Shown: piece after piece, positions 12,582 to 60,141 of the stretch | How the letters are laid out: the number at the start of each line of letters is the position of its first letter | Position numbering within the stretch: the stretch's first letter is position 1 | Assembly (NCBI GenBank): GCA_965204695.1 | Contig: OZ242007.1 | Coordinates: 3,047,701 to 3,111,700 of the forward strand | From: Arenicellales bacterium | Lineage (GTDB): Bacteria; Pseudomonadota; Gammaproteobacteria; Arenicellales; JAHEKD01 | Direction: 5' to 3' | DNA length: 64,000 nucleotides | The notes under the pieces: model-generated | What the model saw: the letters and a program-made list of their open reading frames with translations, nothing else | Database searches by the model: none | What the model was told of the DNA's origin: nothing | Position numbers and translations under genes: made by a program

Positions 12582-12929
12582 ATGAAAAATACAATAAAAA
12601 ATTTTAGTGATAACTTTGTTAAAGAATGCGTTCGTGCTCGTATAACACATGAGTTGGAGAAAAAGCCTCAAAAATTGTATGAACGAATTTGCCATGATGC
12701 AGATGCCCTTTTTGAAAGCAAATATAAAAATAATTCAATTTATTTTGATGAAAATGAAAAGTGTTACATTTTTCGTGGAGGGAGCCCTGAATTAGTCAGA
12801 TTTAATGAAGCAAGCAGTTTTCTTGGACACGGAGATGGAATTTTAATAGTCAGTGAAAATGGACAAAAATTCATTGCAGAAACGGAATCTCAGCGAGGTT
12901 ATCCCAGTGAAATATTTTCTGGCAGCTAA
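12582..12929 (+). CDS. Cassette 3: hypothetical protein (115 aa)
   Basis: The ORF fills the cassette, and its stop lies in the R'' box AGCTAAC. I recognised no motif. Confidence 0.55.
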   Translation: MKNTIKNFSDNFVKECVRARITHELEKKPQKLYERICHDADALFESKYKNNSIYFDENEKCYIFRGGSPELVRFNEASSFLGHGDGILIVSENGQKFIAETESQRGYPSEIFSGS

Positions 12930-31390: not shown

Positions 31391-31398
31391 CTCTTTCC

Positions 31399-32124
31399 GT
31401 GTTGTTTTCAGGGTGTGTCGGTCGGACAGCCCTACAGGCTAATGAGAACAGCGCTCGAACATCAGCAGAGCATAACGATCCATTTGAAACCATTAATCGC
31501 TCCGTATATCGGTTTAATAGCAAAATCGATCAGTATGTGTTTAAGCCAATCGCCAAAACGTACCGAAAGATTACCCCTGATCCCGTTGAGAAGGGGGTAA
31601 GTAATTTTTTCGATAACTTGGGAGAGCCTGTCAATATGGTGAACAATGCCTTGCAAGGAAAATTAGACGATGCGGGGACCAGCGGTGGCCGCTTTATTCT
31701 CAATACCACCCTTGGGGTATTAGGAATTATCGATATGGCAGATAAGCTTGAGATACCCGACGTCGACGAGGACTTTGGTCAAACACTCGCCGTATGGGGC
31801 GTACCCAGTGGTCCATATTTAGTACTGCCGTTTTTTGGTCCACGTTATTTGCGCGGTACCAGTAGTTTTATCGTCGACAGAGCAGTGGATCCGCAAACTT
31901 ATGTTGGTGGCGATGCACGATTACCCTTAATCATTTTGGATACCGTCAATACACGGGCAGAATTCTTAGGGCAAGATGATTTTCTTGAGATGCAAATAGA
32001 TCCGTATATCTTTTTAAGAGAAAGCTATCAGCAACGACGCCAACTTGAAATTAAAGATACGGCAGCAGAACAGATTGATGATTTCGATGACGAGTTTGAA
32101 GAAGATGTGGCTGTGACACAATGA
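31399..32124 (+). CDS. mlaA: MlaA/VacJ-family lipoprotein; the 5' end is clipped at the deletion junction
   Basis: The lipobox remnant is LFSGC, followed by NDPFETINRSVYRFNSKIDQYVFKPIAKTY. Only ~4 residues precede the lipobox Cys if the GTG at 31399 is used. Confidence 0.7.
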   Translation: MLFSGCVGRTALQANENSARTSAEHNDPFETINRSVYRFNSKIDQYVFKPIAKTYRKITPDPVEKGVSNFFDNLGEPVNMVNNALQGKLDDAGTSGGRFILNTTLGVLGIIDMADKLEIPDVDEDFGQTLAVWGVPSGPYLVLPFFGPRYLRGTSSFIVDRAVDPQTYVGGDARLPLIILDTVNTRAEFLGQDDFLEMQIDPYIFLRESYQQRRQLEIKDTAAEQIDDFDDEFEEDVAVTQ

Positions 32125-33685: not shown

Positions 33686-34699
33686 TAACTAACCTGAGTT
33701 CGGAGAAACGGATTTAAGCTGAAGCCATGAAAGCTTGGTGTTCAGTTGTGGAGAGTTTAATAGCCGGTTTAAGGGGTTGGTGGGTGTATGCAATCAATCC
33801 GGCGATCAGATTGACAATAAAGTTTTTAGCACTGCGATGGCGAGTATGTTCAATCTGCGAGATATTCTTCAACTGATCGAAAATGGTTTCAATAATAAAC
33901 CGCTTTCTGAGCATAAGCCGATCCCATAAACTCATCAGTTGCGGTTTCATGTTCTTGCGGATGGTGGTAATCAAACGAAGATGTTGTTGATGCAATTTGG
34001 CGGTCAGTGTTTGAGATAAATAGCCTTTATCAGCGTATAGCATACCGGTTAACTGTTTGACTAATTCAGGGACAGGGGTCCGATCATCGGTATTGCCAGG
34101 TGTGAATTTAATCGCCAGAATTTCGCCTAAGTGATTGATCACAAGGTGTAATTTAAACCCATAGAACCAACCGGTTGAGGTTTTACCCCGTTTAGCGGTG
34201 TCTTTAAACACCAAGTGGCGAGGAATGCGCAGGTTATGGCAAACACACAATGACGTTGAATCAATAAACGCGATCCCGGTCGGTTGCCCATAACGTTGAG
34301 TCAGGTAAGCACATAACGGCACGGTGATACCACTCATGCGCTCGACAAAACGCGTGTAACTGAGCAGCCCTGGAAACTGATCGGCCAACTGTTTCACCAC
34401 ATGGTTCAAGTAATAGTGCTTGAAATTTCGATAACCGCTTCGGTGAAAGTGAATCACGATCGTCATGATCTCACTGTCTGATAGCTGTGTTGGATAAGGG
34501 CGTTTACGTGGGTTGGATTCGATCAGTTGCTGCTGGCAAACCGGGAGAAAACGCTGGCAAAAATCATCGACATCGCAGAATAATTCGACTAAATTCATAA
34601 CAACACCTGCTGGATAAGACAATTCATGAGGTAATTTATCTCATTTATCTTGCAGGTGTTTGTTTTTATTATCTTATTTCTTCGAACTCAGGTTAACTA
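33686..34699 (-). mobile_element. IS982-family insertion sequence (~1.0 kb)
   Basis: The terminal IRs are TAACCTGAGTTCGGAGAAA (left) and TAACCTGAGTTCGAAGAAA (reverse complement of the right end). It has a single transposase ORF. The exact outer ends are +/- a few bp. Confidence 0.8.
33714..34622 (-). CDS. IS982-family DDE transposase
   Basis: 302 aa. Motifs include DSTSLCVCHNLRI, GWFYGFKLHLVIN, FTPGNTDDR and YADKGYLS. Confidence 0.85.
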   Translation of the reverse strand: MSYPAGVVMNLVELFCDVDDFCQRFLPVCQQQLIESNPRKRPYPTQLSDSEIMTIVIHFHRSGYRNFKHYYLNHVVKQLADQFPGLLSYTRFVERMSGITVPLCAYLTQRYGQPTGIAFIDSTSLCVCHNLRIPRHLVFKDTAKRGKTSTGWFYGFKLHLVINHLGEILAIKFTPGNTDDRTPVPELVKQLTGMLYADKGYLSQTLTAKLHQQHLRLITTIRKNMKPQLMSLWDRLMLRKRFIIETIFDQLKNISQIEHTRHRSAKNFIVNLIAGLIAYTHQPLKPAIKLSTTEHQAFMASA

Positions 34700-35904: not shown

Positions 35905-37434
35905 TTAACTGTTTGACAATTTTTTCCATATTTCATAGTCGCCAAAATTTTTTTCAAATTGATAATTTTTCCTAATATATTCATCCACAATATTTATATT
36001 TAGATCATATTTAGTATAATTTTCTTCGTACCAGTAGCTGGTCGTCAAAACAATTTTTGTTACTGCACTCGACTCAAGATCTTTAACTATTTGTTCTTGT
36101 GCCGCTGTGGTATTGGTTACCCCGGGGTCCAATTGATGAAATTTTGTAGGATAACCCCTATTAGATAAATAATAGATTATTGGTTTATTAACAATAAACT
36201 GGTCGTGATTTTTTACACCAACATAAATTTCTTCGTTAGATTTGGTATGGTTTTGAATAAAATGAATTGTCTGTTCAAGCTGGTCAGGCAAAGCTATCCT
36301 ACCTGCCCTGGCGACAATAGGTTTTCCGTTGTATTCAATAAATTCATCAATTTGATATTGATCCTTCCAGGTAACTGGAATTCTAAGAATATAAATAACA
36401 AAAAGGGAAAAGAATAATAAGCAGAGAAATCTAAGGTGCCCTTTTAATTGTTTATAACCCAAAAAGAATATAACTGGTACAAGCATCATGTTGATTAACG
36501 CTAGCGGTGTTAAATGTGCAACATCTGACCGAGCTAATACCTGGTTAAGAAAACAGATACCTATTAACGAAACTACCCATATTCCGTAATATTGAATTTT
36601 TATTTCCTTTGCTTTGATAATTTTTGTGGTTGTGAAGATAAATCCACATATGGCAACGAATGGAAAGAAATAGAATAGTTTGTTTGTAATTGATAAATCT
36701 GGATATGGTGTCGAACGAAAATTTGGCATTATCTCAATTGGTAGAATTATCAACTGTTGTATTATTTCTTTAATATCTATCTTCACCCAAATAAAAACCA
36801 ATATTGGCAGACCTAAAATTAAAAATGATGCTAGATAACACAATATATAAGTCCAGTTTAAGGGTTTTTGTTGTAAGGTTTTCAAGGTTAATACAAGTAA
36901 GATTGGAACTGCACCATATGTTGCCAAATCATGTCTGAATAAAGCACTTAGTGTTAACGAAATACCACAAAAAATGAGCGATAAATAGTCTTCCTTATCA
37001 AAATGAAACAATAAAAATATGACACCGATAAAAATTAATAAGATCGATGGAAAAATAGTGTAAAGCGAATTAGATGACCCTACTAGCCAAGCGATAGACA
37101 TAATCCAGCTGAGCAAAGCAATTTGCTTTTGTATGGTTATTTTTAACACAACAAAAAATGCTGATACGGCCAGCAACGCCTTAATTATTAAATCATAAAC
37201 TCGTGCAGTGATTAAACTTGACCCGAATGTATCAAACAAAAAAGCTAATAAATATGTTTGCCCTGGTGGATAGATCGTCCAAAATTCGTTAAACGGAATT
37301 TGCCCATTTTGTATGCGCTCTGCTCCTGCCAAAATTAAACCCTCATCGAAGGGATCCACTTTTTTTGTGATTATTGGGCAAAGAAGAATTATGGACAAAA
37401 TTAATAATAAAATAATTAAATTCCTATCTTTCAT
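35905..37434 (-). CDS. Passenger gene: polytopic GT-C-fold membrane glycosyltransferase-like protein (ArnT/PMT-type), 509 aa
   Basis: It has ~11 TM helices, an acidic first-loop motif (VDPFDEGLILAGAERI) and a C-terminal soluble domain. It is much more AT-rich than the IS genes. The probable start is MKDRNLIILLL; the track ORF extends upstream into IS sequence. Confidence 0.55.
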   Translation of the reverse strand: MKDRNLIILLLILSIILLCPIITKKVDPFDEGLILAGAERIQNGQIPFNEFWTIYPPGQTYLLAFLFDTFGSSLITARVYDLIIKALLAVSAFFVVLKITIQKQIALLSWIMSIAWLVGSSNSLYTIFPSILLIFIGVIFLLFHFDKEDYLSLIFCGISLTLSALFRHDLATYGAVPILLVLTLKTLQQKPLNWTYILCYLASFLILGLPILVFIWVKIDIKEIIQQLIILPIEIMPNFRSTPYPDLSITNKLFYFFPFVAICGFIFTTTKIIKAKEIKIQYYGIWVVSLIGICFLNQVLARSDVAHLTPLALINMMLVPVIFFLGYKQLKGHLRFLCLLFFSLFVIYILRIPVTWKDQYQIDEFIEYNGKPIVARAGRIALPDQLEQTIHFIQNHTKSNEEIYVGVKNHDQFIVNKPIIYYLSNRGYPTKFHQLDPGVTNTTAAQEQIVKDLESSAVTKIVLTTSYWYEENYTKYDLNINIVDEYIRKNYQFEKNFGDYEIWKKLSNS

Positions 37435-37486
37435 AGTGGTATAAAGGGTTCTTATATGGACACCGCCTGATTGACAAGGAATTTTT

Positions 37487-39106
37487 TCAAGCCGCATGGT
37501 CCAATTCAATATTAGGCTTAAACGGCAACAGGTCCTCAATCTGTTCAACCGTCGCCACCTTTGGCAGTTCAGTGAATATCATCTTTAAATATTGATAAGG
37601 CTCCAGGCCATTGACCTTGGCCGTCTCGATCAGGCTGTACAGGTTTGCACTCGCTTTAACACCCGATACGGTGTCGCAAAAAAGCCAATTCTTGCGGCCA
37701 ACCACATAGGGTCTGATCACGTTCTCGGCCAGATTATTGTCAATGTTCAAATAACCATCAGTGATATAAACCGTCAATTTATCCCACTGTTTGTCTAAAT
37801 AGTACATGGCTTTGCCCAAGGCGGTTTGCTTGACAATCAGTGGTAAGTGTTGATCCAGCCATTGCCGTAAATCATTAAGAATCGGTACAGATCGGGATCG
37901 ACGCAATTCATAGCGTTGTTCAGACGTATATGATTTAGCTTGCTTCTCGATCCGATACAATAGTCGAATCCGCTGTAATGCTTGATGGGCTAACGGTATT
38001 TTCCTGGACTTCAGTTTGCCTTGCGCTACAATCGCCTGGTCAAACTTGCGTTTAGCATGCGCCCAGCAACCTAATTGGGTAATGCCGTTTTCCAGGCAAA
38101 CTTTGTTATACCCCTCATAGCCATCCGTCTGTAAATAACCCGAATAATCCCCTAACAGGTCAACCGGAACACTTTGGCCTCGAGTTGGCGCATAGTCATA
38201 CAATATGATTGTTTTATCCGGCGGGCCACCACGTTGCACCCACATGAATGACTGACTTTGGGGCGTCTTACCCGGCTCTTTTAATACCTGGCATCGTGTT
38301 TCGTCCATCTGGATAATATCGTAGCTCAACATTGATTCACGCAGTAAATTAATCAGCGGCTGGGTCAATATGCCCACCTTGATCATCCAGTTCGCTAAAG
38401 ACGACCGAGTAATGGGTATCTTCAAACGCTTGAATTCTAACTCCTGACGATACAACGGCATCGAATTCACATATTTGTTAATCACGACATGCGCCAAAGT
38501 CCCCGCACAAGCGATACTGCCGGGAATCGGCTGAGTCGGCAGCTTTGCGGCTTTAATGGTTTGTTTGCAATTCGGGCAGCTATAGGTCTTCTTGATATGC
38601 TTGATCACTCGAACCGTCATGGGAATTAGTTCAATCTGCTCAGAAACTTTCTGACCGATTTGCTTCAACTCACTTTGGCAGTGATCACACGTGCATTCAT
38701 TCTCGTCCAGTTCATGGATCACTTCAACACGAGGCAAGTGATCTGGAAGTGGCCTACGGCCACCCTTTGACTGTTTACGGGTATAGCCCGATACATTAGT
38801 TTCGGACCCACCCTGATCAGGCTCGTTGTCTTGACTCGCATGATCGGCTAAAGCTTCTGCCTCATTGAATAGCAACGATAACTGATCCGAGTCGGTATTA
38901 AACTTCTCACTGCGTGAGCCAAAGTTCTGGTGCTTGGCTAAGGCAATCGCTTCAATAAGCTGATTAATATACTCATTTTGATGGTTGAGCTTGGCATCTT
39001 TGGTCACCAAATCATCAGTGAGATGGGTGATTGTTTTTTGCAGTTGAAACACGAGTTCTTTGAGTTTCTCAGGCTCATTAGGCAGTAATTCAACGGATTG
39101 ATTCAT
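37487..39106 (-). CDS. tnpC: IS66-family transposase TnpC (probable start MNQSVELLPNEPE; the track ORF starts at 39178)
   Basis: It has a leucine-zipper N-terminus, a zinc-finger-like CTCDHC...CPNC segment and the DDE core (IQMDETRCQVL...LQTDGYEGY...CWAHAKRKF). Confidence 0.9.
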   Translation of the reverse strand: MNQSVELLPNEPEKLKELVFQLQKTITHLTDDLVTKDAKLNHQNEYINQLIEAIALAKHQNFGSRSEKFNTDSDQLSLLFNEAEALADHASQDNEPDQGGSETNVSGYTRKQSKGGRRPLPDHLPRVEVIHELDENECTCDHCQSELKQIGQKVSEQIELIPMTVRVIKHIKKTYSCPNCKQTIKAAKLPTQPIPGSIACAGTLAHVVINKYVNSMPLYRQELEFKRLKIPITRSSLANWMIKVGILTQPLINLLRESMLSYDIIQMDETRCQVLKEPGKTPQSQSFMWVQRGGPPDKTIILYDYAPTRGQSVPVDLLGDYSGYLQTDGYEGYNKVCLENGITQLGCWAHAKRKFDQAIVAQGKLKSRKIPLAHQALQRIRLLYRIEKQAKSYTSEQRYELRRSRSVPILNDLRQWLDQHLPLIVKQTALGKAMYYLDKQWDKLTVYITDGYLNIDNNLAENVIRPYVVGRKNWLFCDTVSGVKASANLYSLIETAKVNGLEPYQYLKMIFTELPKVATVEQIEDLLPFKPNIELDHAA

Positions 39107-39185
39107 GGGGCTAATTTTACCACAGATAGCCCCGAAAGCCTTATAAACAAAGGCTTTAACCAAAATCATCATGCCCATGTTAATG

Positions 39186-39557
39186 CTATAACACCGTATG
39201 ATGCGGTAATTGCATATGACCTTGTAGCAAGGTTAGATCATACCCATCTAATAACCAGTTGATTTGCTGAGCGTTGAGCTCAACCTGGTCCATCGGCAGA
39301 TTCACCGGCCAGCGAAACCGGGCTTTCTCAATACGTTTCATCCACAGAATAAACCCGTTGCCTTCCCAGGCAATCATTTTGATAATCGTTCTGGCTGCAT
39401 TGCAGAAGATAAACAATTTCGAGGAAAACGGGTCTAAATTCATCTGTCCCTCAACAATGGCGACCAACCCATTTATCGATTTGCGCATGTCCACCGGATG
39501 ACGATACAAATAAATCACTGAATCTGAAGATGGACGAATCAACGCTTGAGTCCACAA
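39186..39557 (-). CDS. tnpB: IS66 Orf2 (TnpB)
   Basis: IYLYRHPVDMRKSINGLVAIV...DPFSSKLFIFCN...GNGFILWMKRIEKARFRWP is the canonical IS66 orf2 motif set. Confidence 0.9.
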   Translation of the reverse strand: MWTQALIRPSSDSVIYLYRHPVDMRKSINGLVAIVEGQMNLDPFSSKLFIFCNAARTIIKMIAWEGNGFILWMKRIEKARFRWPVNLPMDQVELNAQQINWLLDGYDLTLLQGHMQLPHHTVL

Positions 39558-39889
39558 CTGGTGATAATCGATCGAATTGTCTTGGCATCCAGCTCACCAG
39601 TAAACTCAATCACTGTGCCGTTGCTCAGTTTTATTGTGCAACCCGGTAATGCAGGGGAAGAGTGTACGGCCGCTACCGGAATAAAATTCGGTTTGTCCGA
39701 CTGTGCCTCAGACCGATACAGTCCAAGCCTAACCAGCTTACTTTTCCATTGATACAACGTCTTTAAACGCAAACCCTGTGTCAGAGCATAATCCGCAATA
39801 CTGTCTTCACTTTTATCAGCTGCTTTAACATGGTCCAGCCATAAACGCTGCTTTGCCGTCATCGTCTTTGCCAGCATTCCAGTCTCCAA
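39539..39889 (-). CDS. tnpA: IS66 Orf1 (TnpA)
   Basis: 116 aa with the HTH-like segment SIADYALTQGLRLKTLYQWKSKL. It overlaps orf2. Confidence 0.8.
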   Translation of the reverse strand: METGMLAKTMTAKQRLWLDHVKAADKSEDSIADYALTQGLRLKTLYQWKSKLVRLGLYRSEAQSDKPNFIPVAAVHSSPALPGCTIKLSNGTVIEFTGELDAKTIRSIITSCGLKR

Positions 39890-40042: not shown

Positions 40043-42373
40043 CTAGCTATAACCACGCTCTAAGGTCATCAGAATTTCTTCAGGCGTTGCGGGTGCATTT
40101 AGTCCAAGAAAATCTTTTGTCTGTATTTTACTGGCAATCGCATCAGATAATGCTGCCAGAACACTGATTGCAAGACAAAGAGGAGGCTCACCGATTGCTT
40201 TTGATTTAAAAATGGATTCTTCCTTGTTCTGATTCCAGTCCACAAATGCCATTCTCATTTCATCTGGTCTATCGCTGCATGTCGGGATTTTGTAAGTAGA
40301 GGGAGCGTGAGTTTTTAACTTGCCTTTTTCATCCCAGACTATTTCTTCTGTAGTGAGCCATCCCATACCCTGAATAAAACCACCTTCTAACTGCCCCATA
40401 TCTATTGCTGGATTCAAAGATTGGCCAACATCATGTAAGATATCAACCCGTGTTGTTTTGTTTTCTCCTGTCAATGTATCAACTAAGACTTCGGCAACAG
40501 CTGCGCCATAAACATAATAACGATGAGGTTGTCCAGTCATTGTCACAGCATCATAAATATTTTCACCAAGCTTGACGTGACCAGTCGCGGAGAGGGAAAC
40601 GCGATTCATAAACGCTTCATGAACTAAATCATCAAAACTAATTTCTCGATTACCGGCCTGTATACGGTTGGGCAGAAATTTAACCTGTTTGTTTGATACG
40701 TTAAATTTGCCCATGGCAAATTTAAGAAGTCTTTTCTTGATTTTTTTTGCTGCTTGTTTTGCCGCAGCTGCATTGAGATCCGTTCCAGACGAGGCTGCAG
40801 TCGCGATTGTATTGGGAACCTTATCAGTGGCAGTAGCGCATATCTTAATTCGATTAGCATCGACCTGTAATTCATTTGCGACGACCTGTAACACCTTAGT
40901 ATGGAGTCCTTGTCCCATCTCAGTACCTCCATGATTTACATGGATTGAACCATCGGCATATATATGGATAAGTGCACCTGCCTGATTGAGAAAGTTTGGG
41001 CCAAAACCAATTCCATACTTGATAGGAGTCAGTGCAATCCCTTTCTTCAAAATATTGGAAGTATTATTAAATGATGTAATTTGATCGCGGCGAGCATAGT
41101 AATTTGATTTATTGATAAGCTCAGGGACCAGTCGATCAAGAATATTGTCTTTAACCTCGGCCATGAACGGCGTGGTATTTCGAATTTTACGTTCGTAGAA
41201 ATTAATTTTACGAACCTCTAATGGATCTAAACTGAGCTGCCGGGCTATCGCGTCAAGAATGCGTTCAATGATTAGCATTGCCTGAGGAGTACCAAATCCC
41301 CGGAATGCAACACCGGAAACCATATTGGTTTTCCATGCGTGACATGTTGCTCGGACATGCTCGAGAAAATAACAATTATCGATGTGATAAATGGCTCGAT
41401 TTAAAATTGCATCAGACTGGTCCATTGAACAACCACAACGCCCATGAAGGTCAAGCACAATTCCTTCAATTGTTCCATTATCGTTAAATCCAACGTTGAA
41501 TTCAGTGAAAATTTCATGACGTTTCCCGGTCACAAGCATATCGACATCACGGTCAAGACGGCATTTCACTGGGCGACCTAATTTATGTGCAGCTATTGCT
41601 GTGATTGCAGCAAAATGAGTTGGTACCGTTTCTTTCCCACCAAATCCTCCTCCCATCCGTCGTACTTTCACAGACAGTGCGCTAGCAGGGCAATCCAAAA
41701 TGCGTGACACGATTGTTTGAACGGCTGTTGGATCTTGGGTGGCGCTATAAATTTTTAAGTTTCCATGTTCCAGTGGTACGGCAAGTGATATCTGGGGTTC
41801 GAGATAGAAATGTTCTTGTGCACCATTACGTAAACGACCGGACAACTTGTGCTTAGCATGTTGGATCATTTTTTTCGGATCACCGCGCTTTAGTGTCCGT
41901 GGAGGAATTATGTAATTATTCAGGGCCTTTGCCTGCTCGATTGTAAGAACAGGCGGTAGTTCATGATATTCCACAATAGCGACTTTTGCGGCCTGTCGTG
42001 CTGCAAATAGGGTCTCAGCAATGATTGCGAATATAACTTGTCCATGATATTCGACTATCTTGTTCGAAAATACACGATCATCGCCAAGTGCAGTATGGCT
42101 GAAATCATTTGTTCCTGGGATATCTGAAGCTGTAATTACATCGACCACACCTGGTGAGGTAAGAACCTTATCGAGCTGAATTTTCTTAATCCGTCCGTGG
42201 GCAATTGGGCTTAATACGAGATGCGCATGCAGGGTTCCTTCTGGTTCGCGAATATCATCGACATAAATCGCTTCACCAGTTACATGCATTTGGGCACTGT
42301 CATGTTCTAAGTGAGTCTGAATTCCACCTTTAATGGTGATATCTTTAGTAGATGAGGTTGATTTTTGTAGCAT
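40043..42373 (-). CDS. xdhB: Xanthine dehydrogenase, molybdopterin-binding large subunit
   Basis: 776 aa. Motifs include HVTGEAIYVDDI, RRMGGGFGGKE, GTEMGQGLHTK and AIGEPP. Confidence 0.9.
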   Translation of the reverse strand: MLQKSTSSTKDITIKGGIQTHLEHDSAQMHVTGEAIYVDDIREPEGTLHAHLVLSPIAHGRIKKIQLDKVLTSPGVVDVITASDIPGTNDFSHTALGDDRVFSNKIVEYHGQVIFAIIAETLFAARQAAKVAIVEYHELPPVLTIEQAKALNNYIIPPRTLKRGDPKKMIQHAKHKLSGRLRNGAQEHFYLEPQISLAVPLEHGNLKIYSATQDPTAVQTIVSRILDCPASALSVKVRRMGGGFGGKETVPTHFAAITAIAAHKLGRPVKCRLDRDVDMLVTGKRHEIFTEFNVGFNDNGTIEGIVLDLHGRCGCSMDQSDAILNRAIYHIDNCYFLEHVRATCHAWKTNMVSGVAFRGFGTPQAMLIIERILDAIARQLSLDPLEVRKINFYERKIRNTTPFMAEVKDNILDRLVPELINKSNYYARRDQITSFNNTSNILKKGIALTPIKYGIGFGPNFLNQAGALIHIYADGSIHVNHGGTEMGQGLHTKVLQVVANELQVDANRIKICATATDKVPNTIATAASSGTDLNAAAAKQAAKKIKKRLLKFAMGKFNVSNKQVKFLPNRIQAGNREISFDDLVHEAFMNRVSLSATGHVKLGENIYDAVTMTGQPHRYYVYGAAVAEVLVDTLTGENKTTRVDILHDVGQSLNPAIDMGQLEGGFIQGMGWLTTEEIVWDEKGKLKTHAPSTYKIPTCSDRPDEMRMAFVDWNQNKEESIFKSKAIGEPPLCLAISVLAALSDAIASKIQTKDFLGLNAPATPEEILMTLERGYS

Positions 42374-42389: not shown

Positions 42390-43835
42390 TTAGTTGGCCA
42401 GGATTCGTGTGTAAGAAAAATCGTGCCGAGATTCTTCGAACATTTTGTGAAGCAGGTTTCCCGCGACCTTGAGACGGTATTGAGCCGACGCACGCATATC
42501 AGAGATTGGTGCAAAATCTTTTTTCAGGCATTTTACAGCGTTTTCGATGCTTTGTTGTGTATATGGCTGGCCAACTAGGGCCGATTCTGTTTGTAATGCC
42601 CGTTTGGGTGTTGCCGCCATGCCGCCGAATGCGATACGAATTTCTTCGATACTATTCCCGTTTAACTGTATTTGAATGGCAGCGCAGACGGATGAGATAT
42701 CCTGATCAAACCGCTTTGAAATCTTATAAGCAGCAAAACGACTTCCTGGAAGTGGTTTAGGTATTATAATTCGTTCTAGAAATTCTCCCGGTTCTCGATT
42801 TTGTTTACCGTAGTCAATGAAGTAATTCTCAATTGGTAATTCCCGACGTTTTCCTGCTTTGTTTAGAATGATTCGCGCATTCATAGCGATAAGTAAGGGG
42901 GGTGTATCTCCAATAGGAGAGCCGTTAGCAATATTTCCACCCATCGTACCAAGATTTCGAACCTGATGTGAACCAAGTCTGCGCAATATACGACCAAAAT
43001 CTGGATATGCACTATTTAGGGATGCTGGCAAGTCACTATATCGTACAGCAGCGCCTATTTCGAACGCTTCTTTAGTTTCATTAATTGTGCACAATTCTTT
43101 TACATTACCGGTATATATTATCTTCGATAGAAGTTTATGTTGTTTGGTTACCCAAAGGCCAATATCGGTTCCCCCGGCAAGAATTGTCGCACTGGGATTA
43201 CTGTTAACTAATTCGGATAACTCATTTATGTTTGAAGGTGAAAAATACATACTGTTATCGCTATTTATAACCAAGTCTTTGGTAGGTTGAATTGACGTTA
43301 GCAACTTTAACGTTTTTTCATCTTGATCAGAGGGAGAGTGAGGTATATATACTTTTTTAACTGCCTCTATTATGGGACCATATCCCGTACAACGGCACAG
43401 ATTACCTGCCAATGCATCTTCTATTTCTTGTTGCGATGGATTAGGTGTTGAACGCCATAATACGTACATTGACATAATAAAACCGGGTGTGCAAAATCCG
43501 CACTGAGAGCCATGTGTATCGACTAGGGCCTGTTGAATAGGATGCAAGTCTCCATTGGGTGCAATTAAATCCTCGACAGTTAAGAGTTGACAACCATCGA
43601 TCGTTGCTAAAAACTGAATACAAGCATTCACCGAAGAATAATGAAGAGACCCGTTTTTCAAGCGACCAATAGCTATTGTGCATGCACCGCAATCTCCCTC
43701 TGCACAGCCTTCTTTTGTTCCCTTTCGATGCTTATATTCGCGTATGTAATCAAGAACAGTGAGAGTTGAGTCAAACTTTGTAAGTTGGTGGATTTTGCCC
43801 CCTAATACAAAACGGATTTTCGTACGCTTTACCAT
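42390..43835 (-). CDS. xdhA: Xanthine dehydrogenase small subunit ([2Fe-2S] plus FAD-binding)
   Basis: It has the two Fe-S motifs GCAEGDCGACT and CRCTGY, then the FAD-binding GGTDIGLWVTK. Confidence 0.9.
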   Translation of the reverse strand: MVKRTKIRFVLGGKIHQLTKFDSTLTVLDYIREYKHRKGTKEGCAEGDCGACTIAIGRLKNGSLHYSSVNACIQFLATIDGCQLLTVEDLIAPNGDLHPIQQALVDTHGSQCGFCTPGFIMSMYVLWRSTPNPSQQEIEDALAGNLCRCTGYGPIIEAVKKVYIPHSPSDQDEKTLKLLTSIQPTKDLVINSDNSMYFSPSNINELSELVNSNPSATILAGGTDIGLWVTKQHKLLSKIIYTGNVKELCTINETKEAFEIGAAVRYSDLPASLNSAYPDFGRILRRLGSHQVRNLGTMGGNIANGSPIGDTPPLLIAMNARIILNKAGKRRELPIENYFIDYGKQNREPGEFLERIIIPKPLPGSRFAAYKISKRFDQDISSVCAAIQIQLNGNSIEEIRIAFGGMAATPKRALQTESALVGQPYTQQSIENAVKCLKKDFAPISDMRASAQYRLKVAGNLLHKMFEESRHDFSYTRILAN

Positions 43836-45351: not shown

Positions 45352-46515
45352 CTAAGCAGTGATTTTATCTATTAATCTCCATAGAAATCTTTCACAGCTG
45401 GCAATCTGTTCATGGGTGAGGAACTCATCTGCCTTATGCGCTTGATCAATACAACCCGGACCGCAGACTATAGTGGGGATACCCGCCTTTTGAAAATAAC
45501 CGGCCTCGGTACCGAATCCCACACAAGTGCTCTCTTTAGAATTAGATAGAGCCTTTGCGAGTTCTGTAATTTTATCCGTTTCAGAAGTATCTAAGGCCTC
45601 GCAACCTGGGACGAACTCCCAACTCAAACCTGAATTAGGTGCCACGATCTTCATTTCGGGTTCAATATATTTTGCGACATATTCTCGGCATTCATTCACG
45701 TAGTCCATTGGGTCTTCACCCGGAAGGAATCTTACGTCAAAATCGAAAGAACATTGTGCTGCTACAATATTTACAGCTGTTCCGCCATTCACCATGCAAG
45801 TTTGAATGGTGGTGTATTTTGGATCCTCGAATGAATCATTATAAGGGCCCTGGTCGCGTAAGCGGCGTTGTAGTTTCTTTAAGTAGGCAATCGTTTCAGC
45901 AGCCGCTTCTACTGCATTTACGCCCATATGTGCTACACCAGAATGTGCAGGTAGTCCGCTGACTGTAACGTGTCCGCCAATTTTCCCCTTATGTGCACGA
46001 ATTACTTTCATTTGAGAGGGCTCACCAACAATACAAGCCTTTGGTCTTAAGCCACGGTCAATCATATCTTGGATGAGCAGTGGTACACCCAGGCATCCAA
46101 TCTCTTCGTCAAAAGACATTGCGAGATGGATAGGAGTTATGAGTTGTCGTTTCGCGAATTCAGGAGCAAATGCTGTAGCAATCGCAAGAAAACCTTTCAT
46201 ATCTACAACTCCTCGACCAACTATCCTGTCATCAAGTTTTTGCAATTTAAAGGGATCACTTGTCCAGGTTTGATCCTCGCACGGAACCACATCTGTATGT
46301 CCAGATAGAATTATACCTGGGCGATCGCTAGGACCGATGGTTGCAAACAGATTGGCTTTTTGACCACTCTCATCATAAGTGAGTACCGAATCGATACCAA
46401 GACTACCCAGATAATCACGTACAAAGAATATCAATGGTAGATTAGAGTTACTGCTAATAGTATTGAATTCGATAAAGTTTTCGATCATCTCAATTGAGAA
46501 TAGTGGATTGGTCAT
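45352..46515 (-). CDS. M20-family metallohydrolase (ArgE/DapE-like); candidate amidohydrolase of the ureide pathway
   Basis: SGHTDVVP, VDMKG and EE(I)G are metal-ligand motifs. The context with purine-catabolic genes fits. Confidence 0.7.
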   Translation of the reverse strand: MTNPLFSIEMIENFIEFNTISSNSNLPLIFFVRDYLGSLGIDSVLTYDESGQKANLFATIGPSDRPGIILSGHTDVVPCEDQTWTSDPFKLQKLDDRIVGRGVVDMKGFLAIATAFAPEFAKRQLITPIHLAMSFDEEIGCLGVPLLIQDMIDRGLRPKACIVGEPSQMKVIRAHKGKIGGHVTVSGLPAHSGVAHMGVNAVEAAAETIAYLKKLQRRLRDQGPYNDSFEDPKYTTIQTCMVNGGTAVNIVAAQCSFDFDVRFLPGEDPMDYVNECREYVAKYIEPEMKIVAPNSGLSWEFVPGCEALDTSETDKITELAKALSNSKESTCVGFGTEAGYFQKAGIPTIVCGPGCIDQAHKADEFLTHEQIASCERFLWRLIDKITA

Positions 46516-46528
46516 ATATTCCTCAGAT

Positions 46529-47311
46529 TTATGAACCGCAGTAGCATGAGTATCCCCAAGGAGCTGCTAGGAGCGGAATATGATAATGTTGCTTAATATC
46601 ACTTACACAAAAGCGGATGCGTGCATGTGGAAAAAAAGGTGTTGTGCCGACAGGAAATCCGCAGGCTGAAAAATACGTGCCAAGATCAAAAACAAGTTCG
46701 TATTCTCCTATGACAAGACTTCCTGCGCCAGCAAGCCATTCCGGAGTGCGACCTTCTTCGTTTGTGACGAGATCATTGATTTTTTCACCCTCAGGCCCGG
46801 TCAGCGATACGTGTAATCCACCAGCACCGACACCACGTGCGATATCAATAGCATGCGTTGTAATACCCGCACCTCCAATACCAGGTAGAGCAGCCGTTCC
46901 GACTGCAGGATTGGTTAACGATGACAATCGCTTGGGATCATCTATCGGAATTCGATGGGGGGGTACACCACGGTATGTTGAGAACGCAAATGGTGAGATG
47001 ACCAGTGGCACGTGATAATGGGACGCACAATCAGTAATATGAAAATCAATCTGTACAGACTTGAAGAAAGGCGATGATGTTTCGAAAATTAGGCTATATT
47101 CACCGGGAACTGTTTCATCAGTAGTCATTAATGGGCTTGCCAGCCTACCATCTACATTTGTCATTCGTGCCTTTAGCGGCGTTAGAACAAAATTTTCATT
47201 GCGACACAGTGTAATTTTTATCCCTTCCCCAGGTTTTCCTGACATTGTGTCAAGAACGTGGGTGGTCAAACAAGCATTTGATGCCACGAGATCCGAATTA
47301 ATATCGTGCAT
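46529..47311 (-). CDS. uraH: Tandem-domain 5-hydroxyisourate hydrolase (two transthyretin-like HIUase domains in one 260-aa chain)
   Basis: Domain 1 is LTTHVLD...NVDGRL...HYHVPLVISPFAFSTYRG. Domain 2 is ITTHAID...NEEGRT...HYHIPLLAAPWGYSCYCGS. Confidence 0.75.
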   Translation of the reverse strand: MHDINSDLVASNACLTTHVLDTMSGKPGEGIKITLCRNENFVLTPLKARMTNVDGRLASPLMTTDETVPGEYSLIFETSSPFFKSVQIDFHITDCASHYHVPLVISPFAFSTYRGVPPHRIPIDDPKRLSSLTNPAVGTAALPGIGGAGITTHAIDIARGVGAGGLHVSLTGPEGEKINDLVTNEEGRTPEWLAGAGSLVIGEYELVFDLGTYFSACGFPVGTTPFFPHARIRFCVSDIKQHYHIPLLAAPWGYSCYCGS

Positions 47312-47372
47312 TTTTTAATATCCATAGAAAATTGGAAATTGAAAGGTATTATTTTAAACATAAATTGACAAT

Positions 47373-47384
47373 ATTGTGTACAAT
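47373..47384. promoter_or_regulatory. ATTGTGTACAAT operator-like palindrome (uraH/gntR divergent region)
   Basis: The same 12-mer recurs at 48883-48894. It has ATTGT/ACAAT inverted arms around GT. Confidence 0.5.
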
Positions 47385-47759
47385 TATGTCGAGAAACTAT
47401 CATATAAGTTAAGGTATAAACTTGATGATAGTAGTTGAATGATAAAATTAAAATTACAAAATTCAATGAATCTGATCAGGGCATCCTTTGTCATGCCGTT
47501 GTTCAATTGACTTTTAATGATTTAAAGAACAATTTACCCGATAGTCATGAATTCAATAATATCTGAACTGAATGTGTGCTAGATTTAATAGAACAAAAAG
47601 TATTAAGATGAACTCGTTTAGGATCGTTTTTAGTATTTTTTAAGAATATGAAAAAACTCGCTGATGCATATGGGAATTACGCTTATCAAAGGTTTGTAAA
47701 CACAATTGACACGCAAAACATTCCCACAAACATCGTCAACCAAAAAATAGAATTCTTAG

Positions 47760-48479
47760 ATGAAAGATCAATTATCAAGGGCTGACTTGGAAAAGGCGCC
47801 ATCAAGACAAGAGTTAGAACAGCAATTATATGCTGAGATTCGACGAGCCATCGCAGAGCGTCGGCTTCTCCCCGGTGTAAAACTTACCGAGGAAGCCTTG
47901 GCTGAGCTGTTTCTCGTTAGTCGTGCTCGGGTTCGAAAGGTTTTACTTCTATTAGCCAAAGACCATATTGTTACGCATGAACCCAATCGCGGTGCTTTTG
48001 TATGGCGACCGAGTGTTGTAGAAGCAATGAATGTTTTGGAATCACGAAAGGTAATAGAATTGCACCTGATTAAGCAGGCAGCAAAACAAGCAACACGAAA
48101 ACAGATTAAAGAACTTCGTAAAATCCTTAAGGCTGAAAGTGTAGCACTGAATACCCATGATCGTGCAGCCACAATGCGTTTATCAGGTGAATTTCACATT
48201 GCTATGGCTGAATGTGCTGGAAACCCAATTTTAACTGACTTTTTGGCAGGATTAGTATCGCGTTGTTACCTGATCTTAGCTACTTATCAACGCCAGAACA
48301 CACGATCGTGTCCTCAAACAGATCATTGTGAACTCGTCGATCGAATTGAAGCTGGTGATGGTGAAGGTGCGGCTCAACTACTTGAATTACATTTTTTACA
48401 CATCGAAGCTGAGCTTGATCTTGACGATAATGATGACAAAACTACAAATTTGCGTGAAATACTGAAACATCCGAGATAA
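47760..48479 (+). CDS. GntR-family (FadR/FCD subfamily) transcriptional regulator
   Basis: It has a winged-HTH N-terminus (LPGVKLTEEALAELFLVSRARVRKVLLLLA) and a helical FCD-like C-terminal domain. Confidence 0.85.
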   Translation: MKDQLSRADLEKAPSRQELEQQLYAEIRRAIAERRLLPGVKLTEEALAELFLVSRARVRKVLLLLAKDHIVTHEPNRGAFVWRPSVVEAMNVLESRKVIELHLIKQAAKQATRKQIKELRKILKAESVALNTHDRAATMRLSGEFHIAMAECAGNPILTDFLAGLVSRCYLILATYQRQNTRSCPQTDHCELVDRIEAGDGEGAAQLLELHFLHIEAELDLDDNDDKTTNLREILKHPR

Positions 48480-53672: not shown

Positions 53673-54434
53673 ATGATGAAAAATAAAACTCGTATTCTGA
53701 TTATCAATCCCAACACCAGTGAATTTGTGACTGAGAAAATACGAACCTGTGTTGAAAATATGGTTGGTAGCAATGTTGAGATTGTTGCGGTTACAGGAAC
53801 TCGTGGTGCTCCAATAATCAACACACGGTCCGAATGCGCAATTGGTCGTGTTGAAGCTTTAGAATTAGCCGTGTCGCATGCCCATAATTGCGATGCAGTA
53901 TTATTAGCCATCTCTTTTGATACCGGCCTAGATGAGCTGCGAGAAATTTTGCCAATCCCGGTTGTTGGTATGAGTGAAGCGGGCATGCTGGTTGCTTGTA
54001 CAGTGGCACGCCGGTTTTCTTTAGTTACATTTGGAGAACGATCTGTTCCACTTTATGAAGAACTGATCGAGCATTATCGTTTAAAAGACCGTTCAGTTGG
54101 AACGGTTACTCTACGGCCGTTAACTCAGAAAGAGATGATTGATCCAACACAAATTATACCTCTGCTAATAGACAAAATAGAGGAGACAGCTGAGAACCAA
54201 GGAGCTGAAGCAATTGTTCTTGCAGGGGCTATATTTGCAGGACTAGCTGAGCGATTGCGTGATCAGGTTAGTATCCCTGTCATAGACGGAATTGTTGCCG
54301 GTATTAGTATGTTACAGTTACTTGATCAGCTTAATCTGAGAAAACCACAAAAGGGAAGTTACCGTTTCCCGGATAATAAACCATTGGAGGGTATGTCTGA
54401 TGCGTTTCGAAGCCGCTTCAGATCTTTCATTTAA
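53673..54434 (+). CDS. Asp/Glu/hydantoin racemase family protein (allantoin racemase candidate)
   Basis: The N-terminus RILIINPNTSEFVTEKI and the ~250-aa length match the hydantoin/allantoin racemase family. The context is purine catabolism. Confidence 0.65.
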   Translation: MMKNKTRILIINPNTSEFVTEKIRTCVENMVGSNVEIVAVTGTRGAPIINTRSECAIGRVEALELAVSHAHNCDAVLLAISFDTGLDELREILPIPVVGMSEAGMLVACTVARRFSLVTFGERSVPLYEELIEHYRLKDRSVGTVTLRPLTQKEMIDPTQIIPLLIDKIEETAENQGAEAIVLAGAIFAGLAERLRDQVSIPVIDGIVAGISMLQLLDQLNLRKPQKGSYRFPDNKPLEGMSDAFRSRFRSFI

Positions 54435-54469: not shown

Positions 54470-55672
54470 TTGGATATTCTTCTTGAATGGTTTAGCTATT
54501 TTGCACGATGGGGACATGTTATTGCGGCTATTACATGGATAGGCACCTCATTTTACTTCAACTGGCTAGATCTATCTGAGCGCCCAGCAACACATAAAAC
54601 ACTCAAATCGAATGTTGTTGGTATTGTGCATGAAATACACGGCGGTAGTTTTTATTATCACGAGCGCCACTGGCCAATCAAAGATATTCCAAGAACGTTA
54701 TCACACTCCGGACCAGCACAGCTGACCTTTCTAACTGGATTTATTTTAGTTGTCTATTATTACTGGTTTGGTGCTGAGACTTATCTCCTCAAACCATCGG
54801 GCGGTTATTCTACATTGAGCGCAGTTATGGCAAGTGCATTCATTCTCTTTGTACCATATTTTATATACGATGTAGTATGCAAGTTTACGTTAGATGACAA
54901 GATTGTTTTTATCATCGTGTCACTTATGACAGTCGGACTCAGTTTCTATGCTAGCACCATATTCAATGCGAAAGCGGCCTATGTCCATATTGGCGCCATG
55001 CTGGGTACGATTATGGTTGCAAACGTGAAGTTCGTCATTATTCCCAATCATATTAGAATGCGCTCTCAGGTACAGAAGGGCAAACCTGTAAATCAAGATT
55101 ATCACAAATTAGCAAAAAGACGTTCGCAACATAACAACTACATGACGTTACCGGTTGTGTTTAGTATGGTTAGTATTCACTTCCCGATAGCATTTTCAGG
55201 TCAGTATGCATGGCTAATTCTTGTATTGATTATGGGAGGTGCCTTTTTTATACGCTATTACCGTAATATTGTATTGCGTGAAGATCGAAACAGCCCATTA
55301 ATTATATTTGTATCATTATTATTGTTAAGTATTGGGATAGGGTTAAGTTACATTCCGTCGGTCGTACAAACCCAAGAAAACATCGTATTCGAAAATGAGA
55401 TGGAACAAAGTGCTTTTAAAATTATTCAACAAAGGTGTACAAGCTGTCACTCAGCTGCACCTACATTTGAAGGTATTGTAAGTCCTCCAGGCGGGATTAA
55501 ATTCGACACGATTGCCGAGATTAAAGCTCAGAAAGACCGAATATATAAAAGTGTTATAACAACTAATTTCATGCCTCCTGGTAACGTGACACAGATGACT
55601 GAGTCAGAACGCACAAATCTAGATTCCTGGCTATCTGAAATTGGTGTACCAAAGCAAACAGAAACCAAATGA
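54470..55672 (+). CDS. puuD: Membrane-bound urate hydroxylase PuuD (cytochrome c-type)
   Basis: The N-terminus is WFSYFARWGHVIAAITWIGTSFYFNW. It has multiple TM helices and a C-terminal CTSCH haem-c motif. It uses a TTG start. Confidence 0.8.
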   Translation: MDILLEWFSYFARWGHVIAAITWIGTSFYFNWLDLSERPATHKTLKSNVVGIVHEIHGGSFYYHERHWPIKDIPRTLSHSGPAQLTFLTGFILVVYYYWFGAETYLLKPSGGYSTLSAVMASAFILFVPYFIYDVVCKFTLDDKIVFIIVSLMTVGLSFYASTIFNAKAAYVHIGAMLGTIMVANVKFVIIPNHIRMRSQVQKGKPVNQDYHKLAKRRSQHNNYMTLPVVFSMVSIHFPIAFSGQYAWLILVLIMGGAFFIRYYRNIVLREDRNSPLIIFVSLLLLSIGIGLSYIPSVVQTQENIVFENEMEQSAFKIIQQRCTSCHSAAPTFEGIVSPPGGIKFDTIAEIKAQKDRIYKSVITTNFMPPGNVTQMTESERTNLDSWLSEIGVPKQTETK

Positions 55673-56604
55673 GTGTTGATGCAATCATAAATGAGACTTA
55701 TCCACGTGACATGAAAGGGTACGGGAGTACACCACCTGACCCCAAATGGCCAGATGGTGCTCGATTAGCTGTGCAATTCGTATTAAATTATGAGGAAGGC
55801 GGAGAGAATTGTATATTACATGGGGATAGATCTTCGGAGGCCTATCTGACTGAAATTGTCGGACTAAGTCCGCTACAGAACCAACGGAGCCTTACTGTAG
55901 AATCACTCTATGAATATGGAAGCCGAGTTGGATTCTGGCGGCTTCTTCGTCTATTCAAAGAAAAGGGGCTACCTCTGACTTGCTTTGCAGTTGGTATGGC
56001 ACTCAAACGTAACCCGGATGTTGCACATGCCCTTATCAATTCTGGTCACGAGATTGCTGGGCATGGATGGCGTTGGATAGATTACCAAAATGTTCCGATT
56101 AACATTGAGCGTGAACACATTCGATTAACTATCGATACGATTCGAGATCTGACAGGTGGACGACCACTTGGTTGGTATACGGGACGCGTTAGTCCAAATA
56201 CGACTCGTTTAATCGCTGAGGAGGGCGGTTTTTTATACCATTCCGATTCTTATTGTGATGATCTTCCATTTTGGGAAACAGTTGAGGGCCATTCAAATTT
56301 AGTTGTGCCTTATTCTCTTGATGTGAATGACATGAAATTCGGGGGGATTCAAGGTTTTAATTCTGGAGATCAATTTTTTACGTATCTTCGGGACAGCTTT
56401 GACTGGCTTTATCGTGAAAGTGCCACCCATCCACGCATGATGTCAATTGGCTTGCATTGCCGAATAGTCGGTAAGCCCGGTCGTATTGCAGCACTGGAGC
56501 GTTTTATTGATTACATTAGCCATCATGAAAATATCTGGATTTGTCGTCGCATCGATATTGCTCGACACTGGCAGAGTGCTCATCCAGGGCCCACTTTAAT
56601 TTGA
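55669..56604 (+). CDS. puuE: Allantoinase PuuE (polysaccharide-deacetylase fold)
   Basis: YPRDMKGYG...VQFVLNYEEGGENCILHGD...YEYGSRVGFWRLLRLF matches the PuuE family pattern. Confidence 0.85.
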   Translation: MSVDAIINETYPRDMKGYGSTPPDPKWPDGARLAVQFVLNYEEGGENCILHGDRSSEAYLTEIVGLSPLQNQRSLTVESLYEYGSRVGFWRLLRLFKEKGLPLTCFAVGMALKRNPDVAHALINSGHEIAGHGWRWIDYQNVPINIEREHIRLTIDTIRDLTGGRPLGWYTGRVSPNTTRLIAEEGGFLYHSDSYCDDLPFWETVEGHSNLVVPYSLDVNDMKFGGIQGFNSGDQFFTYLRDSFDWLYRESATHPRMMSIGLHCRIVGKPGRIAALERFIDYISHHENIWICRRIDIARHWQSAHPGPTLI

Positions 56605-56625: not shown

Positions 56626-57372
56626 ATGCTACGAAAACAATTTGGTGAAACACGTTCAACTTTCCAAGATAATCATGCTCTGATCAGCCCTGACAGCTTT
56701 GAACGTACAACACTACCCAATTGGCCGGGTATCGATATAATTTTCGTCATAACACCACAGATGGGTGCGCGATTTTCGATGTACCTAGCTGAAATGCCAG
56801 ACTCATCAATTGGACAAAAACCATTTTCGGGTCTTGAGCGTTTTATTTTCGTTCTTAGCGGTAGTATTACGCTACAAGTAGGCGATCATAGTCATGAAAT
56901 AAACATGGAAGGATATGCATTTATTCCAGCTGATCAGTTTCACTCTATAAAGGCTAATGGAGAAACCCGTATCGTTGTCCTTGAAAAAGTTTACTCTGAG
57001 CTGGAAAATCATTCCCAACCTAGTGTGTATGTAGGTGATACCAAGGAAGTGCCGATGGCGCCTATGAAGGGGGATGACAGACTCATGCTGAGTAAGTTAG
57101 TACCTGAGGAGCTTTCATTTGATTGTGAAATAAATGTAATGGATTTTTCACCAGGTGCATCTTTGCCTTATGTGGAAACTCATTTTATGGAGCATGGACT
57201 ACTCTTTCTAGATGGTGGTGGTGTGTATCGTTTGGATGACTGCTGGTACTCGGTCGCAGAAGGTGACTTTATTTGGATGGGTCCTTTTTGTCCACAATGG
57301 TTTGGTGCAATTGGACGAACAAATACAAGATATCTCATTTACAAAAACTGGAACCGAGATCCTCATGAATAA
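56626..57372 (+). CDS. allE: (S)-ureidoglycine aminohydrolase (bicupin, AllE/YlbA-like)
   Basis: It is 248 aa with two cupin modules and sits immediately after puuE. Confidence 0.7.
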   Translation: MLRKQFGETRSTFQDNHALISPDSFERTTLPNWPGIDIIFVITPQMGARFSMYLAEMPDSSIGQKPFSGLERFIFVLSGSITLQVGDHSHEINMEGYAFIPADQFHSIKANGETRIVVLEKVYSELENHSQPSVYVGDTKEVPMAPMKGDDRLMLSKLVPEELSFDCEINVMDFSPGASLPYVETHFMEHGLLFLDGGGVYRLDDCWYSVAEGDFIWMGPFCPQWFGAIGRTNTRYLIYKNWNRDPHE

Positions 57373-59148: not shown

Positions 59149-60141
59149 TCAGGCACACAGTTTTAGGTTTTCGCACCTCCTTTGGTTTAACGTTTGTTGT
59201 TTAATAACGGCTCGCTCATCGATGATTTGCTGATATCGACCATAATACATATCCGCCGGTGTCACATTGTCTAACGACTCATGATAGCGTTCGTGGTTGT
59301 AATGATGAACAAACTGTTCAATGGCTTGTTCGAGTTCGCCAGGCAGATAATAATGCTCAAGTTTGACGACGTTTTTCATTGACCGATGATAGCGTTCAAT
59401 TTTACCCTGAGTCATCGGATGGTACGGTGTTCCACGAGTATGCGTCATCTGATGATAAGCCAGGTAATCTTTCAGCTCACCGGATAGATACGCCGGGCCA
59501 TTATCACTGAGTAGCCGTGGTCGGTGTTTAACAGGCACATTTGTCACACCCGTTACAGCAATCGCTTGATCCAGGGTGTCTTTGACATCACCCGCGCCCA
59601 TGGTACTAGTGAGCATCCAGCTCAGAATAAACCGTGAATAATCATCCAGTACGGTAGACAGATAATACCAACCCCAGCCGATGATTTTGAAATAGGTAAA
59701 ATCAGTCTGCCATAATTCATTGATTCGCTTGGTTGGCGTATGGAAGGTATCACTGGCCGATAGCAGAATATAGGCCGGTGAGGTAATCAGGTCATGGGCC
59801 TTCAAAATACGGTAAACACTGGACTCAGAGATAAAGTACCTGTGTTCATCGGTAATTTGCCAGGCCAGTTCACGAGGTGATTTCTCCGGGTACTGAAGTG
59901 CAATCTCGAGACATTGCTCTTTGACTGATTCGGGGAGTTTGTTCCAGAACCGTTGGGGAGATTTACAATGACTTTCCAATGCATCAGGGCCACCCATTTG
60001 ATAGAGTTGATACCAACGGTAAAAACTGCTGCGAGCAATACCCAGTTCCGCTAATGTCCTACTCACGGGAAGTTCACTGGCTTCAACTATATGGATAATT
60101 TCCACTTTTTCAGCCGCCGACAAACTCATTCGTCGTCCCAC
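59149..60141 (-). CDS. IS3-like transposase OrfB (rve integrase core)
   Basis: WQTDFTYFKI...LSTVLDDYSR...LLSDNGPAYLS...HPMTQGKIERYH forms the DDE motif set. Confidence 0.85.
   Translation of the reverse strand: MGRRMSLSAAEKVEIIHIVEASELPVSRTLAELGIARSSFYRWYQLYQMGGPDALESHCKSPQRFWNKLPESVKEQCLEIALQYPEKSPRELAWQITDEHRYFISESSVYRILKAHDLITSPAYILLSASDTFHTPTKRINELWQTDFTYFKIIGWGWYYLSTVLDDYSRFILSWMLTSTMGAGDVKDTLDQAIAVTGVTNVPVKHRPRLLSDNGPAYLSGELKDYLAYHQMTHTRGTPYHPMTQGKIERYHRSMKNVVKLEHYYLPGELEQAIEQFVHHYNHERYHESLDNVTPADMYYGRYQQIIDERAVIKQQTLNQRRCENLKLCA

Follow-up and report, generated by a model that had tools for sequence, protein, structure and literature searches.

Genomic context of the fused gene

One open reading frame on the minus strand of the 64-kb stretch of DNA analysed here (the window) runs from 46529 to 47311, starts with ATG, encodes 260 amino acids in the ORF list and carries two 5-hydroxyisourate (HIU) hydrolase domains joined head to tail. 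It is embedded in a purine-catabolism cluster with the following genes and features.

40043–42373, minus strand: XdhB (TIGR02965, 1094.5 bits)
42390–43835, minus strand: XdhA (TIGR02963, 640.8 bits)
45352–46515, minus strand: ArgE-like M20 metallohydrolase (PRK07522, 487 bits; Pfam M20 and M20_dimer)
46529–47311, minus strand: fused tandem 5-hydroxyisourate hydrolase (HIUase) gene (260 aa and a TAA stop; PF00576 twice, TIGR02962)
47312–47759, no strand: intergenic region from which the fused gene and the GntR gene diverge (promoter-like hexamers and an inverted repeat, as consensus matches)
47760–48479, plus strand: GntR-family regulator, transcribed divergently from the fused gene
53673–54434, plus strand: allantoin racemase homologue (PF01177; PDB 3qvk, E 1e-25, and 5lfd, E 7e-23)
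54470–55672, plus strand: PuuD-type membrane urate oxidase (PF06181, E 2.5e-76)
55669–56604, plus strand: PuuE allantoinase (TIGR03212, 494.6 bits)
56626–57372, plus strand: (S)-ureidoglycine aminohydrolase (TIGR03214, 288.4 bits)

A guanine-deaminase-like CDA-fold protein, an isochorismatase-like hydrolase and a BMP-type ABC transporter are also encoded in the cluster, and the neighbouring pathway genes are all full length with high scores. PuuD, the urate oxidase that produces the HIU substrate, is encoded 7 kb from the fused gene. A gap of 13 nt containing a GAGGA ribosome-binding site separates the fused gene from the M20 gene downstream, and the two probably share an operon. On the other side, the imperfect inverted repeat ACATAAATTGACA / TGTACAATTATGT (47358–47389) overlaps the promoter-like hexamers and is a possible operator. 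The 64-kb window holds no second HIUase, and phmmer searches with two OHCU decarboxylase domains as queries found no OHCU decarboxylase in it.

Mobile-element genes are dense in the window (9250–12259, 20380–21510, 33714–34622, 37487–39889 and 59149–60141) and comprise an integrase, IS110, a Tn3-family transposase, IS982, a unit of three IS66 genes directly following xdhB, and IS3/IS481. A 547-aa ORF (35905–37548) with no Pfam or NCBIfam match adjoins the IS66 unit. An RND efflux permease at 28631–31600 is divided between two ORFs, one of 309 aa corresponding to model positions 2–305 and one of 652 aa corresponding to positions 339–896, and looks like a disrupted gene. The window also includes a 2147-aa ORF (2059–8502) in which Ig-like He_PIG, PKD, NPCBM and F5/8 type C domains are combined with dihaem cytochrome c peroxidase/RoxA-like segments, as well as MlaA and OmpV-like genes, which would be in keeping with a gammaproteobacterial host.

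Two complete HIUase domains in a single chain

Pfam matched the HIUase/transthyretin family PF00576 to two stretches of the 260-aa protein (E 6.8e-54) and found no other domain in it, and the NCBIfam equivalog model for hydroxyisourate hydrolase, TIGR02962, also matched two stretches, with 188.6 bits for the whole protein. The E-values exclude a chance origin of both domain matches. Cut out separately, domain 1 (residues 1–116) scored 101.0 bits and domain 2 (residues 145–260) 93.3 bits against TIGR02962, each exceeding the curated cutoff of 87.45 bits. This bears out the proposal of an earlier, sequence-only reading of this DNA that two complete HIUase domains share one frame, and disposes of the objection it had raised against itself, that one half might prove not to be HIUase-like on a profile. 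The two halves share 31% identity, and both match solved HIUases (8uw4, 4q14, PucM 2h0e and Salmonella 2gpz), the best PDB match of domain 2 being the HIUase 8uw4 (E 2.5e-21). The model of the periplasmic YedX/HiuH type, PRK15036, gave 105.5 bits, below its cutoff of 217; the N-terminus MHDINSDLVASNACLTTH of the window protein contains no signal sequence, and its transthyretin matches are weak (E around 1e-3). The segments of the protein lie in the window as follows.

46964–47278, minus strand: domain 1, residues 12–116 (H18, R56, H100, Y113-R114-G115-V116)
46868–46963, minus strand: linker, residues 117–148 (32 aa; ends conserved, middle variable)
46532–46867, minus strand: domain 2, residues 149–260 (H153, R188, H244, Y257; ends YCGS)
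46538–46540, minus strand: codon 258, TGC (Cys), one C-to-T transition away from CGC (Arg)

Domain 1 retains H18, R56, H98/H100 and Y113-R114-G115 and has Val at residue 116 (YRGV encoded by TAC CGT GGT GTA, 46964–46975, minus strand), after which the chain runs on into the linker PPHRIPIDDPKRLSSLTNPAVGTAALPGIGGA. In the subclade of the window protein domain 1 lacks the E-F helix segment, and the secondary structure of the AlphaFold2 (AF2) model has no helix in domain 1. Domain 2 retains H153, R188 and H242/H244 and closes with C256-Y257-C258-G259-S260-stop. The catalytic sets H18/R56/H100/Y113 and H153/R188/H244/Y257 are complete, and neither half combines YRGS with a free terminal carboxylate: the YRGV of domain 1 is internal, and domain 2, which does reach the terminus, ends in YCGS. 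The earlier reading had described both ends correctly, namely a domain 1 that keeps His/Arg/His and YRG away from the C-terminus and a domain 2 that keeps the terminal position with Arg replaced by Cys.

A rare but recurrent family of fused proteins

Among 5.8 billion proteins we found about 47 full-length relatives (247–317 aa, 37–55% identity), below which the matches fell sharply to single-domain proteins. An HMMER scan of 1.84 billion cluster representatives gave 2823 HIUase-like clusters; the ten with E <= 1e-30 were nine fused proteins and one 181-aa fragment, and the fused form makes up some 0.3% of HIUase clusters. In the GTDB species representatives, an intact fusion is present at 15 loci (L001–L015) and a frameshifted copy at one (L018), and the carriers are mostly Alphaproteobacteria (Rhodobacteraceae/Paracoccaceae, SAR116, Mesorhizobium and Aminobacter) with one Castellaniella. 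The search for other tandem HIUases that the earlier reading had recommended thus produced about 50, and the fused HIUase is a rare but recurrent variant of a well-known enzyme. Nothing relevant was found in the literature on tandem, duplicated or two-domain HIUases, and wherever sources name the fused proteins they are labelled "(5-)hydroxyisourate hydrolase", a plain label that hides the two-domain architecture.

Across 56 non-identical family members, G115 and H153 are separated by 37–49 residues, and the ends of the spacer are kept (YRG-A-P-P-x-R-A-P-x-D ... A-P-P-P-G-x-G-G-A-G-L-T-x-H) around a variable middle. H18, R56, H100 and Y113-R114-G115 are invariant in these members, and H153, R188, H244 and Y257 are invariant or very nearly so. 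In a neighbour-joining tree with 100 bootstraps, the domain 2 sequences fall into a single clade with weak support (37% bootstrap), and domain 1 is left unresolved; it is the shared linker motifs and synteny, not the tree, that argue for a single origin of the fusion.

An apparent fusion could also arise if a sequencing or assembly error had deleted the stop codon between two neighbouring HIUase genes, in what is read as the linker. Adjacent unfused HIUase-like pairs do exist (L016, L017, L019, L023 and Methylobacterium), and in the L018 MAG the fused gene is frameshifted, which is the opposite kind of error to a lost stop. However, about 50 proteins of 254–290 aa from independent assemblies in several sources (NCBI, ENA, JGI and Logan, including 16 GTDB species representatives) have a common architecture, common linker ends and a common gene order, and the unfused pairs do not appear to be orthologous to the two halves. 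We consider such an artefact extremely improbable, and the form of it that the earlier reading had named, a stop missing through a sequencing error in the linker, is excluded by the independent fused relatives.

L016, L017, L019 and L023 were rejected as tandem fusions, each being a pair of separate adjacent genes with an in-frame stop. At L017, L019 and L023 the stop lies between the genes, and tblastn reports the pair as one match. In these three loci and in Methylobacterium bullatum (L084, 8749–9750), and so in several Proteobacteria, a gene for a Tat-signal (periplasmic) transthyretin-like protein adjoins one for a cytoplasmic HIUase; each has its own start and stop, and the pairs lack the linker and the M20 neighbour of the fused type. 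The unfused Methylobacterium pair was the only find in the plasmid collection, where no fused HIUase was detected. The two adjacent HIUase genes of L016 (9713–10720, an alphaproteobacterial MAG) are mutual closest relatives, the first ending YRGG-TPPPNPA-stop(TAG) and the second beginning two codons on, and they could represent an independent recent duplication toward fusion, a fission product or an assembly error.

Predicted structure

AF2 folded the window protein into a compact two-domain model (pLDDT 91.6, pTM 0.90; linker pLDDT 71–86), and the same compact arrangement was obtained for a typical family member, P0025 (pLDDT 90.4, pTM 0.89). Compared with solved HIUases using Foldseek, the domains gave TM scores of 0.81–0.91 each, those normalised to the target being 0.81–0.85 (E around 1e-10) and the models coming from AF2 runs on a single chain. 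Both the models and the Foldseek matches display the transthyretin-like beta-sandwich fold. The Foldseek search found no PDB chain with two such HIUase domains. The covalent fusion postulated at the outset is confirmed by the fusion, linker ends and synteny common to the 56 non-identical members, together with the pTM values of the two models.

Divergence of the two halves and the Arg258-to-Cys substitution

We compared 171 single-domain HIUases, column by column, with the two halves of the fused family. Both halves keep the positions at which the single-domain enzymes are essentially invariant (T-x-H-x-x-D, G-x-P/G-A, D/E-G-R, H-x-H-x-P-L, S-P and Y-R-G), and the catalytic positions match in each. 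In domain 1 the terminal Ser is replaced family-wide, by Ala in 86% of members and by Val in the window protein, and the chain continues. Domain 2 shows systematic changes of its own: Pro162 is replaced by Gly in 100% of members, Leu155 has become Ile and Asp186 Glu, and Cys often stands in place of Thr256.

The two active sites of the HIUase tetramer lie where its dimers meet, at the dimer-dimer interface; His7, Arg41, His92, Tyr105 and Ser108 of two chains make up each site, and the terminal carboxylate makes a salt bridge with Arg41 (PMC8272043). The S108A mutation in the Klebsiella enzyme lowers the efficiency only slightly, and deletion of the C-terminal tetrapeptide in a homologue strongly reduces activity (PMC8272043), so the lack of a free terminus in domain 1 may come at some cost. 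The sequence-only reading had gone further and suggested that the two halves are each missing a different portion of the active site. As a design feature of the fusion this is not supported, since His, Arg, His-x-His and Tyr-Arg-Gly are kept in both halves family-wide. Of the complementary loss that it envisaged, the domain 1 side stands, the replacement of Ser by Ala or Val and the missing free carboxylate being properties of the whole family, whereas R258C is private to the window protein and the catalytic sets are intact.

Residue 258 is Arg in 55 of the 56 family members (43 of 44 in a smaller alignment), and an Arg occupies the equivalent position in 99% of the 171 single-domain HIUases; Cys occurs in the window protein alone. 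YRGS terminates domain 2 in every other fused member, including the relative with an M20 neighbour of 78% identity to the one in the window, and the Arg258-to-Cys change is therefore private to the window genome. The Arg of YRGS has a structural role: it is hydrogen-bonded to strand G and, across the monomer-monomer interface, packs onto Phe80 of the adjacent subunit, and the C-terminus of the canonical HIUase folds back into the dimer-dimer interface (PMC11348317). By alignment, Arg258-to-Cys is thus a lineage-private substitution at a structural position.

Because Cys replaces an Arg that is so widely conserved among single-domain enzymes, the window copy may be impaired. It might even be decaying, if Arg258-to-Cys, together with G109A, destabilises the C-terminus of domain 2 or the interface under relaxed selection; the uniqueness of Cys258 among 56 relatives would fit such a course, and the wealth of insertion sequences in the window (IS110, Tn3, IS982, IS66 and IS3/IS481 transposases), together with an RND pump gene in two pieces, is consistent with relaxed selection. 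However, the ORF is intact and retains its N-terminus and all catalytic residues, and the pathway genes around it are complete and high-scoring. The window protein is off-consensus at 3 of the 63 columns conserved at >=90% (L62M, G109A and R258C), which is ordinary in a family ranging from 0 to 7 such columns, and for the R112A mutation of the E. coli homologue a relief of frustration, not a destructive effect, is discussed (PMC11348317). On balance, an impaired or decaying copy appears unlikely.

Conserved synteny of the fused-type loci

The genes within 10 kb on either side of the HIUase were compared between 16 fused-type loci (L001–L015 and L018) and 64 single-domain loci. The gene set of the window is found again around the fused gene throughout the fused-type loci. 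An M20 gene is present in 15/16 of them against 4/64 single-domain loci, an allantoin racemase in 13/16 against 4/64 and a ureidoglycine aminohydrolase in 13/16 against 1/64; PuuD is present in 15 of the 16. The distribution of OHCU decarboxylase is the reverse, with 0/16 fused-type and 35/64 single-domain loci having the gene within this distance. The fused gene marks a variant of the ureide cluster with ArgE-like M20, racemase and ureidoglycine aminohydrolase and with no nearby OHCU decarboxylase. Purine-degradation pathways in SAR116 differ in allantoin racemase and in the release of ammonia or urea (preprint on marine purine use, 10.1101/2024.02.09.579562), and the two cluster types found here match these pathway variants.

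The M20 orthologues lie directly downstream in 15 of the 16 fused-type loci and are close (516–707 bits), whereas the M20 matches in single-domain loci are distant paralogues only (63–108 bits). Across fused loci the M20 proteins are 60–78% identical, compared with about 40–55% for the HIUase itself. Two of three further M20 homologues (53–58% identity), in loci without a HIUase, adjoin a PuuE-like deacetylase (L081 and L083), one of them also a racemase (L081), which points to a role after allantoin. We infer that M20 most likely provides an allantoate-amidohydrolase-type step feeding ureidoglycine aminohydrolase. Where a source names the protein, it is called "acetylornithine deacetylase", probably a misannotation. 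A coupling of M20 exclusively to the fused HIUase was considered and set aside, since distant M20 homologues occur with PuuE-like genes and no HIUase.

Just past M20, six of the fused-type loci (L005, at 11931–12627, L006, L009, L010, L013 and L015) carry two extra small transthyretin-like genes, which are absent from the window. One type (X) ends FRGN or FKGDP and the other (Y) LFLTH or LFVTR; both match PF00576 (E 1e-16 and 2e-14) and keep the His motifs, with the catalytic Arg mostly lost (Met, Leu or Lys) and the Tyr lost in all. They have no obvious function.

The 16 fused-type loci without a nearby OHCU decarboxylase would be explained if the fused protein had taken on an added function, with cavities that are lined by domain 1, lack the terminal carboxylate and carry the conserved linker Arg binding, decarboxylating or handing on OHCU in place of the absent enzyme. 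Urate oxidases are reported to occur almost invariably with both Urah and Urad (PMC4562309), the A-P-P-x-R-x-P start of the linker is conserved far beyond the need of a passive tether, and the Pro-to-Gly change at 162 in domain 2 is fixed. If true, this would constitute a second, non-homologous route for the third step of urate oxidation, for which, according to the literature, there is no alternative gene. However, the racemase in 13 of the 16 loci fits a spontaneous, non-stereospecific decay of OHCU, the decarboxylase may be encoded elsewhere in these genomes (the view being 10 kb on either side), and with complete HIU-hydrolysis residues in both halves a redesign of the pocket is not evident. 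We judge an added OHCU function to be quite unlikely, and give a similarly low probability to the companion idea of an obligately asymmetric enzyme in which A-P-P-x-R-x-P reshapes one half of each cavity.

Discussion

Our data indicate that the gene probably encodes a functional HIU hydrolase, made of two diverged HIUase domains head to tail and acting as a dimer of fused pairs. The domain content, conservation, synteny and compact predicted fold are observed, and from them we infer the oligomeric state, the activity and the role of M20 in the fused-HIUase system. Ordinary HIUases are homotetramers, and two subunits contribute to each of the two active sites located at the interface between the dimers. 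In the proposed model, two fused chains would assemble into a four-domain pseudo-tetramer mimicking this canonical tetramer, with each half supplying a full catalytic set (His, Arg, His and Tyr) and domain 2 alone contributing a free C-terminal carboxylate. The chain of domain 1 would leave the active-site region by way of the conserved A-P-P-x-R-x-P segment. As the C-terminus of the canonical enzyme folds into the interface and domain 1 keeps the Arg that takes the strand-extension position, the geometry suggests that this segment exits through or beside the opening of the active site. The fused enzyme would remove the unstable HIU released by the PuuD urate oxidase, in a cluster variant combining it with the ArgE-like M20 hydrolase, allantoin racemase, PuuE and ureidoglycine aminohydrolase.

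The active sites of the fused HIUase may be asymmetric. HIUase sites are two-fold symmetric and yet bind one asymmetric substrate, and the natural fusion represents an experiment in asymmetry; with halves that have diverged to 31% identity, it could reveal which of the duplicated catalytic residues each side needs.

Single-domain HIUases (PucM 2h0e, Klebsiella HpxT 3qva, Herbaspirillum 8uw4 and Brucella 4q14) have the fold of the fused domains, the same catalytic His/Arg/His/Tyr and the same urate-oxidase pathway context. The fused type differs from them in having two domains per chain, for which a dimer of pairs is expected instead of a homotetramer, and in a domain 1 without a free C-terminus and with Ala or Val for Ser, to which the window protein adds the YCGS of its domain 2. 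Allantoin synthase, the plant TTL protein (5z5m), is likewise a fusion of a HIUase domain in urate breakdown; however, its partner is the OHCU decarboxylase PF09349, a domain found neither in the window protein nor in the 64-kb window, whereas the partner in the fused HIUase is a second HIUase domain. Vertebrate transthyretin has the same fold and arose from HIUase by gaining a C-terminal extension beyond Tyr-x-x-x (PMC11348317), and domain 1 parallels it in continuing past YRG. In transthyretin, His/Arg/His has become Lys/Glu/Thr and catalysis is lost, whereas both fused halves retain His/Arg/His, so that in domain 1 a C-terminal extension is tolerated with the catalytic residues kept. The extension of transthyretin lengthens strand H; domain 1 instead keeps Arg at that place and then continues with Pro-Pro.
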